Assembly: GCF_016432865.1 (NCBI RefSeq)
Contig: NC_067401.1
Location: 264,616,001 to 264,680,000, forward strand
From: Antechinus flavipes
Taxonomy: Eukaryota
Length of the DNA stretch: 64,000 nucleotides
Direction: 5' to 3'
Shown: piece by piece, positions 39,701 to 45,718 of the stretch
Layout: each line of letters opens with the position of its first letter
Position numbering within the stretch: position 1 is the first letter of the stretch
The notes under the pieces: model-generated
Database searches by the model: none
The model's input: only the letters and a program-made list of their open reading frames with translations
Told to the model about the DNA's origin: nothing
Program-made: the position numbers and the translations under genes

Positions 39701-40428
39701 TCTGTTGTGCTCATACTCTTCTTTTCCTCTTATAGTTCATTTTAGAGGCAATTAGGTACCACAAGAGTTTATTGACTGTGGGAGGGAAATAGACTGATTC
39801 TTTAGGAAAATCAATTGGCAGCTGTGTGAAGGCTAAATTGGAGAGGTCAGAGGGTTAAATCAGAGAGACCAATCTGAAAGCAGCTACAATAGTCCAGTTC
39901 AGAGGTGATGAGAGCCTGAACAAAGTTCTATAGATAAAGAAAAATGTGAAGGTGGTTAGATACTATATAAAGATGGCTATGACAAAACTCAAAAATGAAT
40001 GGATATGTTCAAGTGACTGGTTAAATTCAAAGAAATATCATGTTTAGAATGGCCCTTTGGCACTGGAGTTACAAAGACTAAGTGCTGAGTTGAGTGAAGT
40101 TATTGGTGTCCTGAGGCTATGTATATACAAAGAAATGGAAGTGATACATTAAACCAACAAACCATAAGTTTCATTTCTCAAAAGGATGATATAATTCAAT
40201 TCAATGTAATTCAAGGTGAATAATTCAATTTAATTCAACTCAATATTCATTTATTAATTGCCTAGTATGTGCAAAGCCTTGAGATAGATTCTGGGGATAT
40301 AAAGGCATAAATGAAAGCCCTGACTTGTAAGTCTTCAAAATTATTTCTAAGATGCTATTTCATCAGAGAACTTCTCTCACAACCTGAAGCCTGTTTGCTC
40401 TAAAACATCAAGCTGTTCCTATATTAGT

Positions 40429-40669
40429 GGCAGCGAGGTGGCTCAGTGGATAGGGTACTGGATCTTAATCGAGTAAGGATAGAAGTGAGTTCAAATCTAG
40501 TCTCAGGCACTTACAAACTGCTGTGTGAGTTTTGGCAAGTCTATTAATCCTGATTGCATCAGTTTCCTCTTCTGTAACAAAATGGAGAAGGAAATGATAA
40601 AATGATAAAATTTTTGCCATATAAATTTCAAACTGGTTCATAAAAAGTCAAAAACAACTGAACAACAAC
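40429..40669 (+). mobile_element. MAR1-like SINE
   Basis: A-box tggctcagtgg, B-box gagttcaaatct, tail ggagaaggaaatg...caactgaacaacaaca. Confidence 0.8.
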
Positions 40670-41969: not shown

Positions 41970-42428
41970 AAAATATGTTCACTTTGATTGATTATATTTT
42001 TGTTTCAAGGGAATATCATTGTAATACAAAAATAAAAAAGTGTCAATGAATGACAAACATTACACAGGAAAGAAGAAAGTTCAAAAGGAGACTTAAAGAA
42101 AAGTATTGATGTTGCTACTATCTTGTTAAAAGCCTATCTATACTTTAAAAATGAAATTGTGCATGTTAGATTCACAGTTTTGTGCAAAACTCTCTTTTCG
42201 TCCTTTTAAATAAATGTTTTTTTTTATTTATTTGTGACCATATATGTATACACACATACATTTAAAATGAAAGTTAACTAAAGCATCGACCAAGTTCCTG
42301 CAAGAAAGTAGACTTATATTATTTATTGTATATGAGCAATGCTTACTCTCAGGTCCACAAATTTAAAAATAAAAATATTTTGATAGCTTTATTTTTTAAG
42401 GCTTCCTTTGCAATCCTATATGTTTTAT

Positions 42429-42612
42429 TGTAATGGGCTGAGGCTTGAGTTGATGCACTGAGGTCCCAAGCACATGAGGCTAAATAGTAATTGGACCATA
42501 CTCTATTAATAGATAAGCTTGGAGAGAGAATGGCCCCCACCCACTCTTTGTGCAAGTCCTGATGTGTTATAGGAAATGATGATTTTGGTGGGTGGAGGCA
42601 GGGGAGTGGAAA
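42429..42612 (+). repeat. Left arm: first 184 bp of the ERV LTR (U3 side)
   Basis: Collinear with 19884-~20070; differs from the right arm by 4 substitutions and a 2-bp indel. Confidence 0.95.
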
Positions 42613-42687
42613 TGGTAGCAGAGGATGGTTTCGATCCATCGACCTCTGGGTTATGGGCCCAGCACGCTTCCGCTGCGCTACTATGCT
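42613..42687 (-). tRNA. tRNA-iMet-CAT: Initiator tRNA-Met (CAT) full-length copy with 3' CCA, probably a retrocopy/pseudogene
   Basis: Reverse complement AGCATAGTAGCGCAGCGGAAGCGTGCTGGGCCCATAACCCAGAGGTCGATGGATCGAAACCATCCTCTGCTACCA (75 nt) equals vertebrate tRNAiMet except G5>T and G9>A; anticodon at 42653-42655. Confidence 0.97.
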
Positions 42688-42710
42688 ATTACATTATATG
42701 GAAGGGGAGG

Positions 42711-42785
42711 AGATGGCTCAGTGGATAGAGCACTAGCCTTGAAGTCAAGAGGACCTGAGTTCAAATCCAGCCTCAGACACTTAAC
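42711..42785 (+). mobile_element. tRNA-derived head of a WSINE1/MAR1-type CORE-SINE, 3'-truncated, followed by A-rich aaacagaaaaa
   Basis: A-box TGGCTCAGTGG 42714-42724, B-box GAGTTCAAATCC 42757-42768, ...gcctcagacacttaac; no CORE follows. Confidence 0.9.
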
Positions 42786-42796
42786 AAACAGAAAAA

Positions 42797-43037
42797 GTGA
42801 GCTGAGCCAACCGTGGCAATGGCAATCCCAAAAGTCTCTCCTCCCCTTCCTTTTCCACTCCCCTGCCTCCACCCACCAAAATCGTCATTTCCTATACAAC
42901 ACATCAGGACTTGCACAAAGAGTGGGTGGGGGCCATTCTCTCTCCAAGCATATATATTAATAGACTATGGTCCAATTACTATTTAGCCTCATGTGCTTGG
43001 GACCTCAGTGCATCAACTCAAGCCTCAGCCCATTACA
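42797..43037 (-). repeat. Right arm: first ~241 bp of the same LTR, inverted
   Basis: Reverse complement begins TGTAATGGGCTGAGGCTTGAG and extends to ...GCTCAGCTCAC; 12 differences from the solo LTR over the first ~184 bp, more diverged beyond. Confidence 0.95.
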
Positions 43038-44921
43038 TTTTATCATATTTGTTTATATTATTCTGAGTTTACATTATTTAACTAATTATCAATTATCCTC
43101 ACTAGAGTTCCAAAGGAATCTAAGACAGAAATAAAAAGGTTAAGAATACTTGTTGTTTACTTGGACCAGAGTACAACCACAATTTAAGGGCTCTCCTTCT
43201 CAGTCTAATGTGTTATATAATTCTTCCTATTTGTGTAGTATTAATATTTTTTTTTTGCAAAAGAACATAATCACTTGGAATATTTTAGTTTGCCTATTAA
43301 AAGTCAAAGATTTACTTTTCCTTTGTAACTTTTGTGAGAAGCTTTATTGTACAGATTCTAACATTCTACCCTGTACCCTGAAATAAGACACTTACCAAGG
43401 TCACTGAATGTATTCCAAAACTAAGTTGTTCAAAGACCAACCATCAATTCATAAATATGTTCCATAAGTTCAAACTGTACTTTAGTGAATCAACTTCCTA
43501 CTAACTAATTAATTAAGAATTAAACATTTTTTTTCTATACTGTATAAACAAGAAACAGGCTCCAAATTATATCACTCCAAAAATTTACCAGATCTTACCC
43601 TCCAGAGATATGTAATCTTATGTTTATTATGGAGAAATTAATACTCATTACAAGCACAGGAGAAACTTCCTGTTGACCTTGATTTACCCTTCAACAACCT
43701 CCCAACCCTCCCCTGGGAACCACATTCGATTCAGATTTTACTTCGTCATTGTTCTTATTACATCATCTCCCATTTAGAGAATATTTGCTTCTAAATGTTA
43801 GGCAACCAGCAGGGGACAATCATCTTTGTAGCTTCTGAGAACAGCCCCTTTAATCCAGGAAAATGTCCACCAATTTTTTTTTTTAATTGTTCTCTAGTAA
43901 CCTACAATTTTTATTCCTTGGAGGTTGTGGGATTCCATGGTTTGCAACCATTTGATAAAATTTTAACATTATTGGGTGAGACATGATCCCTGATTTTTTT
44001 TTTCCCATTTTTAGCATGGACTCCCAGTGGCAGAGGGATTCCTTTTACAGTCTCTAGATTCTCCTTTTTTGGCAATTGATAAAAAAAAAAAAAGGGATGA
44101 TTGCAAACAAGTCCAAGAATCCTTTAGATTCTTTTAAACATGACTCAGATTCATACAAAAGAATTTGACTAATTATCAACAATTTAAAAATGACTATATA
44201 ATATGAAATACTCAGATAATGTCTACGTGAACTTGAGTTGACAGATTATAGAATTATCTTTTAGTATAAGCATCTTTGATACATTTTAAAGATGGATAAT
44301 AACAGTCCATAATTGACTGAAAATAGAAATGGACCTAAGAGCCTCCTGAAATTAAAAGGTACTTGAAATGACCCATTTTCCCCTGAAACAAAACCAAGCA
44401 TTTTGGGGGTTGTTTTTGTTTTTCAATCGAAAAATACTTGGCATACTTAGCAATAATGATTTATAACTTCAACTGATAATAAAACATTAACACAGGAGTA
44501 TAAAAAGTCATTTTCATGCAGAAGTATAATTCATTATAGATCATTAGGTAAAATATTTCAAAGACTATAGCATAGATATTCAAATATGGACATGGGGTAA
44601 TGTCATTTTTCCTTTATAAATCATAGATCATCTTCTGAAATTTATAATAATGGGGAAGAATGGTTCTAGGTAAGAAATAACAGCTTAGAATCACTGTCAT
44701 TTAAGGCATTTCTTAAAGTATAATTTCCTAGTTTTAATGTCAGGGGGATGATGTGTTCTTAATCTAATTATAATGTCATATATCAGGTTGCTGTCAGGAG
44801 AGAATGACAAATGCCAACATTATTTGAAATAAAAAAAGTATCTGAAATTCAGGAAGCTATACTTTTATTCATTTATTTATTTTTAAATCATCATGTAAGT
44901 GTGTTTGAATAAAAACTTTCT

Positions 44922-45147: not shown

Positions 45148-45368
45148 GTTCAGTTATGTTCATTTTTTCATGATTCTATTTGGTGGCAGAGATACTGAAA
45201 TGGTTTGCTACTTCCTTCTCCAGCTTATTTTACAGATGGGGAAATTGAAGCAAGCAGGCTTGAGTAACTTAAATTTACCCAGAGACATAGAGCTAGTAAG
45301 TGATTTGAACTCAGGTGCATCTTGATTTCAGGCCCAGTACCCTATACACTGAGCCATTTGATTTCTCC
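45148..45368 (-). mobile_element. MAR1-like SINE
   Basis: ggcagagatactgaaatggtttgctacttccttctccagc...ttttacagatggggaaattgaagc...gatttgaactc. Confidence 0.78.
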
Positions 45369-45718
45369 TACTATAGGGTTAGCTATATAGCTATAGTTCA
45401 AGTGTAAGCTGACTTCAGGCTGAGAGTTCTTTGATGAGATAGAGTCTTTGGACATGATTTTAAATACATAACTCAAAAGTAAAGTCAGGAGAGAAAAAGA
45501 TTTAATTTATGTCTTTATATCCTCAGAATCTATCACTGGGTTTTGTATAACATGGCAAATAATAAATATTGAGTTGAATTAAATTGAATTATTCACTATG
45601 AATTATATTATAATAAATAGAATTATATAATCTTTTTGGGAATTGAAACTTTCATTATGTTGTCAATATATCACTTCCCCCCCCTCCTCTCTCTCTATAT
45701 ATGTATGTATGTATGTAA

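Follow-up and report, generated by a model that had tools for sequence, protein, structure and literature searches.

How a complete copy of a mature initiator tRNA came to lie against a retroviral LTR is the question raised by a 64,000-nt stretch of Antechinus flavipes DNA (NC_067401.1, 264,616,001 to 264,680,000), which we refer to as the window. An initial annotation had recognized a mature, CCA-ended initiator tRNA at 42613-42687, and this identification held: ARAGORN calls tRNA-Met(CAT) there on the minus strand, Rfam model RF00005 scores it at 53.8 bits, and it matches the genome's own iMet genes at 70/72 nt plus CCA, or 73/75. Of 16 iMet matches returned by a DNA search, 10 were fetched for comparison; in five, positions 5 and 9 are the sole differences from the window copy, and none of the ten has a CCA end or a nearby LTR match. 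The CCA in the window copy, together with its absence from these genes, supports the proposal that the template was mature RNA and is what is expected of a reverse transcriptase (RT) product, whereas a functional tRNA-iMet gene would lack the CCA, the changes at G5 and G9 and the flanking U3. A 28-nt pattern covering the CCA end has one exact match in the 3.19-Gb genome, the window copy itself, so that the proposed search for further CCA-ended copies returned this one alone. Around the tRNA there is neither an A-tail nor a target-site duplication (TSD) of its own, also when natural LTR copies are used for alignment, and 1 nt of U3 is missing at the junction, all as originally described.

The tRNA does have a U3 context, but the supposed LTR proved to be one of two inverted arms that share a 6-bp TSD (Table 1). 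We observed that two inverted U3 ends enclose the tRNA in an element of 609 bp (42429-43037) that runs from TG to CA and is flanked by one exact 6-bp TSD. The tRNA copy is a passenger inside this element and not a separate insertion, and removal of 87 nt, comprising the tRNA and the filler beside it, restores an ordinary 525-bp layout. The filler matches the pol gene of an endogenous retrovirus (ERV) over 21 nt in the viral copy L007; in another copy the match is 19 nt long, and in three more it is 17 nt. Shuffled sequences reached at most 13, and in a random control a match of 21 was attained by 1 of 582 window 28-mers, the target including host flanks. This exact match replaced an earlier candidate, in which the filler was a copy of the right junction (11/12). 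The pol match takes in tRNA positions 1-6 (42682-42687) and the next 15 nt, a correction to the original description, and it accounts for the G5>T difference from the gene. Between the filler and the long arm lies a SINE head of tRNA-like sequence, in which A and B boxes for Pol III are recognizable; it scores 27.5 bits in Rfam, under the gathering score, and by comparison with published description we call it WSINE1-like. The A-tail and long TSD of LINE mobilization are missing from the window element. The two arms disagree at U3 site 84 and have about four private changes. This enclosing element, its TSD, the pol piece and the family described below had all been missed in the initial annotation. 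Two sequencing runs contain 0.80-0.83 of the words searched, and one of them may be the source of the assembly; each has a contig identical over 43014-43700, which reaches just 24 nt into the 609-bp element. No empty allele was listed, and this absence proves nothing. Runs from two other organisms with small shares were discounted as evidence.

Table 1. Parts of the 609-bp element and its flanking duplication, in window coordinates
Feature	Position	Strand
Left copy of the 6-bp TSD	42423..42428	.
Short arm, U3 1-186 of the ERV LTR with a 2-nt deletion; begins at the TG att end	42429..42612	+
Mature tRNA-iMet copy; CCA at 42613-42615, G9>A, positions 1-6 overlap the pol piece	42613..42687	-
21 nt of ERV pol at the RT YMDD; overlaps the tRNA 5′ end (5/6) and the SINE head (3 nt)	42682..42702	+
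13-nt U3-derived leader (U3 189-201), predicted 5′ end of a Pol III RNA	42701..42713	+
tRNA-like SINE head, WSINE1-like; A box 42714-42724, B box 42757-42768	42714..42787	+
Subfamily junction of SINE head and antisense U3; 39 exact genome matches	42779..42800	+
Long arm, inverted U3 from about 237 to 1; ends at the CA att end	42801..43037	-
Predicted Pol III terminator: the first T4 beyond the head, facing U3 184-187	42851..42854	+
Right copy of the 6-bp TSD	43038..43043	.

The arms correspond to the beginning of U3 in an LTR of which the first 28 nt have 6257 exact matches in the genome. Full LTRs are followed by a primer-binding site (PBS) for tRNA-Lys, with 425 exact LTR-PBS junctions, which settles which tRNA primes proviruses bearing this LTR. 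Identical LTRs are found in two proviruses, of 6937 and 6962 bp, along with the Lys PBS, 6-bp TSDs and gag, protease, RT, RNase H and integrase (rve) domains; neither contains a long env frame, and their reading frames are interrupted by breaks. The best solved relatives are 7sr6, from HERV-K, and the integrases 3jca and 7usf, from MMTV. The source virus is a young, env-less, tRNA-Lys-primed, betaretrovirus-like ERV. Matched by description, the helper is likely MEBrv 3, an env-less marsupial endogenous betaretrovirus of Dasyuridae with a length of 7.3 kb and an LTR of 469 nt (PMC11334065). Both are highly abundant class II gag-pro-pol elements of about 7 kb with identical LTRs and no env, as seen here in the two copies examined, although by the published description the ERV here, at 6.94-6.96 kb with LTRs of about 360-445 nt, is somewhat shorter (PMC11334065). 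The accessible portion of that account makes no mention of inverted or SINE-bearing derivatives of MEBrv 3 (PMC11334065). Together, the SINE type and the helper virus point to a dasyurid marsupial as the likely host. The virus alone also generates U3-U3 products: in two SINE-free fold-back insertions (L330:~950-1650 and L331:562-1978) a full LTR, PBS, leader and part of gag are followed by an inverted LTR, joined in both at the same 7-nt match in gag, and L331 has a 6-bp TSD. Two further loci (L038, L039) contain short tandem proviral copies whose PBS is a second variant and corresponds to a different Lys type, and at three others (L032, L033, L332) SINE pieces have recombined into the U3 of otherwise normal LTRs.

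The window element belongs to a family. Its leader and head together have 281 exact matches in the genome, 90 of them fused directly to U3, and its head/U3 junction occurs at 39 sites on seven contigs, two pairs of which lie in or near one element. From loci obtained by targeted searches we took 101 innermost inverted pairs, chosen irrespective of TSD. Fifteen of these are flanked by a polypurine tract (PPT), inside larger elements; among the 86 host-flanked pairs, 62 have an exact 6-bp TSD, 11 have one with a single mismatch and 13 have none, against 3/10100 in a control between elements. The window element, these 62 relatives and the two proviruses share TG...CA att ends and the same TSD length, as produced by a retroviral integrase. 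In a less biased sample, drawn from the first 100 U3 starts listed for contig 1 and comprising 68 of them, 14 contain part of a SINE and 6 form inverted elements with a TSD, which suggests about a thousand SINE-bearing copies genome-wide if this region of contig 1 is typical. Many copies combining U3 and SINE have no second att end within 1.5 kb, and some counts of 5′ ends of family members are biased by the search pattern. Three elements have a second end of just 9-11 nt of inverted U3 (L035, L056, L353), with exact TSDs in the first two, so a very short att end seems to suffice.

Besides SINE cores, the interiors of family members contain viral pieces in both orientations, PBS read-through, 5S rRNA and host sequence. 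Arms shorter than 200 nt tend to end at about U3 183-199 (19/36, some of the loci being pattern-selected), against varied partners. ARAGORN found no non-Lys tRNA on another arm in loci L001-L329, where the tRNAs are iMet in the window and Lys at the PBS; patterns for a tRNA on an arm gave 334 and 70 matches, of which 43 and 48 were fetched, and partial tRNAs would escape this search. An Rfam search of 40 loci returned one 5S rRNA, two Lys tRNAs and one marginal SINE head. The 5S rRNA, nearly full length, lies inside a family member with its 3′ end against the inverted U3 arm (L015:2107-2225), joined with extra nucleotides and little pairing. Three inverted elements with TSDs (L128, L168, L233) have non-viral, non-SINE inserts of 0.3-1.2 kb, one of them GC-rich, which are possibly captured host RNA.

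The arms and the cores of these elements have different histories. Over U3 1-180, the arms of one element differ on average at 2.0 sites and those of different elements at 3.9, and identical arm pairs make up 17/53 within elements compared with 4.8% between them. At the polymorphic U3 site 84 the arms agree in 70 of 72 elements, where 50% would be expected, and in 28 of 28 of the fold-back type. U3 distance over the same interval is equal within and between core types (2.16% vs 2.15%), and four SNPs in 144 heads track structural type stepwise: full-length elements are GCCG (39/66) and then ACTA (16/66), the 586-type is ACTA (19/28) and the 525-type ATTA (31/33). Cores were therefore inherited through successive sources, and arms were likely re-made from the helper. 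These observations bear on two alternatives. The elements could be MITE-like DNA transposons that bear long terminal inverted repeats and multiply as DNA, with the tRNA along by chance; their inverted ends, short length and fixed-length TSD would fit, but the arms are not inherited with the core as a MITE's terminal repeats would be, the ends are LTR att sites and mature RNAs have been captured, so that we regard this as very improbable. Alternatively, one or a few ERV/SINE loci could have given rise to them as dead-end by-products, with no self-renewal, in keeping with the high variability of the junctions and the existence of SINE-free inverted products (L161, L330, L331), the sequencing contigs being mute on transcript start, end and strand. 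The stepwise head SNPs would require successive source copies, which argues against this explanation and leaves it unlikely, though a serious contender; that the family is self-renewing is our somewhat favored reading.

What such a source might transcribe can be predicted. Among 109 heads with a U3 tract (34 heads lacking one were excluded), 78 have their first downstream T4 at U3 183-190 and 11 have it later; none has it earlier, and 20 lack it. The predicted SINE/U3 RNA has a 13-bp terminal stem, and its pairing with U3 amounts to -133 kcal/mol. The chimeric-head RNA has also been mobilized by L1: one copy (L149) has an A-tail and a 15-bp TSD and starts exactly at the 13-nt leader. Two other roles considered for the SINE were set aside: that its RNA acted as primer was rejected as the sole route because helper-type U3 variants occur at 190-240 beside the same core junction, and that its head supplied its own att end found no support.

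The proposal that a retroviral RT had read through the tRNA gained support from the virus's true PBS, where the same behavior is seen. By exact patterns, 13 of the 425 LTR-PBS junctions run past the 18-nt PBS into tRNA-Lys, a ratio that is approximate since the two patterns differed in length, and L075 brings the number of copies to 14. Two of the 14 extend through all 76 nt, and three (L085, L088, L089) stop at tRNA position 20, a usual dihydrouridine site. Position 58 is misread in 4/14 copies compared with 3/403 at other unconstrained sites (binomial 4.5e-5 at 1.5%). Five more copies with position-58 misreads, two of them full length, lie beside other LTR ends (L173, L174, L175, L176, L178) and were excluded from this count; Lys read-through is not restricted to this LTR. 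The methylated m1A58 normally stops the retroviral plus strand, and read-through has been described as blocking completion and integration (PMC8599865). RT copies tRNA beyond 18 nt both in that plus-strand strong-stop failure and in the elements here; the failure is a dead end (PMC8599865), whereas in this genome a second U3 end rescued such products and they became fixed in the germ line. The iMet of the window, moreover, is not the virus's primer. Fixed read-through copies constitute an in vivo germ-line record of the frequency of RT passage at m1A58 and of the nucleotide inserted. In the window copy A58 was copied correctly and G9 reads as A; G9 of human iMet is m1G (PMC7293042), and a modification misread is only suggestive here, given that ordinary mutation is also possible and the arms themselves have private changes.

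The specific mechanism originally proposed, mispriming or template switching at a cryptic U3 site, fared less evenly, with read-through upheld and cryptic priming left as a possibility. The iMet copy adjoins U3 186 and not, like a PBS of about 18 paired nucleotides, the end of U5. The polarity is that of a PBS with the junction exactly at A76, and the reported match of displaced U3 to the iMet 3′ end is real (9/13, or 9.5/13 counting G:U). In a sub-case of the assembly that we propose below, tRNA-iMet itself would have primed at U3 187 of viral RNA and the plus strand would have continued through the primer still joined to its template. Site 187 ranks first within U3 179-200 (9.5 vs ≤8) and second of 235 on the arm, and whole-primer read-through has its precedent in the two full-length Lys copies; yet the site has a terminal A:A mismatch and pairs at -15.7 kcal/mol, where the Lys PBS reaches -41.8; a better site at U3 167 (11/13, -22.2 kcal/mol, perfect CCA pairing) was left unused, and arms across the family commonly end at U3 183-196 with many partners. 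The 5S rRNA joined its arm with little pairing, so jumps do occur, and a jump at this family hot spot fits the iMet join as well as cryptic priming does. Between a tRNA that primed at U3 187 and one jumped onto by the strand we see about even chances, while cryptic priming as a full account appears plausible and somewhat short of probable.

Two alternatives place the tRNA in the locus after the arms. An ordinary 525-bp member might have integrated first, with tRNA cDNA and a pol scrap later patched into a DNA break, as the ordinary layout left on deleting the 87 nt would allow; the 1-nt loss, the filler and the missing TSD resemble endonuclease-independent repair. The insert lies, however, exactly where the run-off point of the arm meets the RNA 5′ end, the filler derives from the same virus, and the arms differ at site 84, where all fold-back copies agree, which makes later patching improbable. 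Insertion into the LTR of a tailless tRNA retropseudogene made by L1 would also explain a tRNA copy with no A-tail, and therian genomes contain many such copies with target-site complementarity (PMC5322556). Against it, the window copy has no 8-30 nt TSD of its own, is not 3′-truncated at a single-stranded region and ends at CCA, its junction reads TGG vs the target's AGG, and viral pol filler adjoins it, all in line with the original exclusion of L1; we consider this origin extremely unlikely. Paralogues with inverted arms and no tRNA do exist, but as independent insertions they do not refute the original proposal.

We consider it quite probable that the 609-bp element was assembled by template switching of an endogenous betaretrovirus-like RT and inserted by the viral integrase. 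We infer the following course. A source copy would be transcribed by Pol III into an RNA of about 154 nt, consisting of the 13-nt U3 leader, the SINE head and an antisense U3 tail up to the T4 stop. A PPT-primed plus strand would cross from U3 onto this RNA by way of the antisense tail and copy it to its 5′ end, and in ordinary members the copied end would fold back on U3 189-201 to generate the second arm. In the window element, instead of folding back at once, the first plus strand would have copied about 18 nt of pol RNA, while a second plus strand, from a different LTR variant, would have ended at U3 186, continued into mature tRNA-iMet from the CCA, passed m1A58 and copied the tRNA to near its 5′ end. 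Pairing of the two 3′ ends over 6 nt (5 matching) and filling in would yield a DNA with two U3 att ends, which the integrase would have accepted. That two templates were joined during reverse transcription is likely, since the window arms disagree at a site concordant in almost all other elements. Observations against the model include that the iMet capture is a single event and that 13 of 86 pairs lack a TSD.

By current understanding, SINEs rely on LINEs, and non-autonomous LTR elements need direct LTRs, a PBS and a PPT. The elements described here fail both definitions, LINE-dependent SINE and direct-LTR element, and yet have integrase signatures and a SINE-core lineage. TRIMs, LARDs, VL30 and LTR-mediated retrocopies are non-autonomous, use the RT and integrase of LTR elements and capture host RNA. 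Like TRIMs, LARDs and VL30, the present elements depend on the RT and integrase of an LTR element and capture RNA, but where those have direct LTRs, a PBS and a PPT, here, as in the window element, there are two inverted U3 parts with no U5, PBS or PPT of their own. DIRS elements share inverted terminal repeats and an RNA intermediate but use a tyrosine recombinase, whereas the ends and TSD here are those of a DDE retroviral integrase, the window element having a 6-bp TSD and the helper an rve integrase (PMC7192593, PMC3950715). The window tRNA differs from tailless retropseudogenes in its lack of an own TSD, its full 3′ end with CCA and its viral context (PMC5322556). WSINE1 is a CORE-SINE with a tRNA-like head, a short core and an A-rich tail that is propagated by L1; in the devil it has reportedly been inactive for about 30 My (PMC3403934, PMC4408412). 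The elements here have the tRNA-like head in common with it, but add a U3-derived leader and an antisense-U3 tail, have a 6-bp TSD and att ends in place of an A-tail and long TSD, and occur as young, near-identical copies (PMC3403934, PMC4408412).

A literature search, with repeat databases, supplements and most subscription papers outside its scope, found no account of inverted-U3 SINE chimeras; WSINE1 and MEBrv 3 were compared by description. Taken by itself, the capture of iMet is a curiosity, a single variant of an RT error already known; the interest rests on the family. Judging from sequence, we lean toward reading the SINE/U3 element as a Pol III RNA whose antisense-U3 tail exploits ERV plus-strand synthesis, in effect a dead marsupial SINE revived. 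If so, two inverted U3 ends would be rebuilt from the helper in each cycle and inserted by integrase over several generations of source copies, giving hundreds to over a thousand copies, carrying tRNA, 5S rRNA and other RNA into the germ line, and recording the modification marks of captured RNAs in DNA. Self-renewal would amount to a third route, in which a small Pol III RNA parasitizes retroviral reverse transcription and a SINE spreads without LINEs; a SINE described as silent in a dasyurid for some 30 My would have regained mobility recently in this genome, and its copies would be broken into 'LTR' and 'SINE' fragments by repeat annotation. Elsewhere in the window, 40155-40468 and 45327-45662 form an old inverted pair of about 300 nt, 72-86% complementary and 5 kb apart, which likely represents two copies of ordinary repeats.
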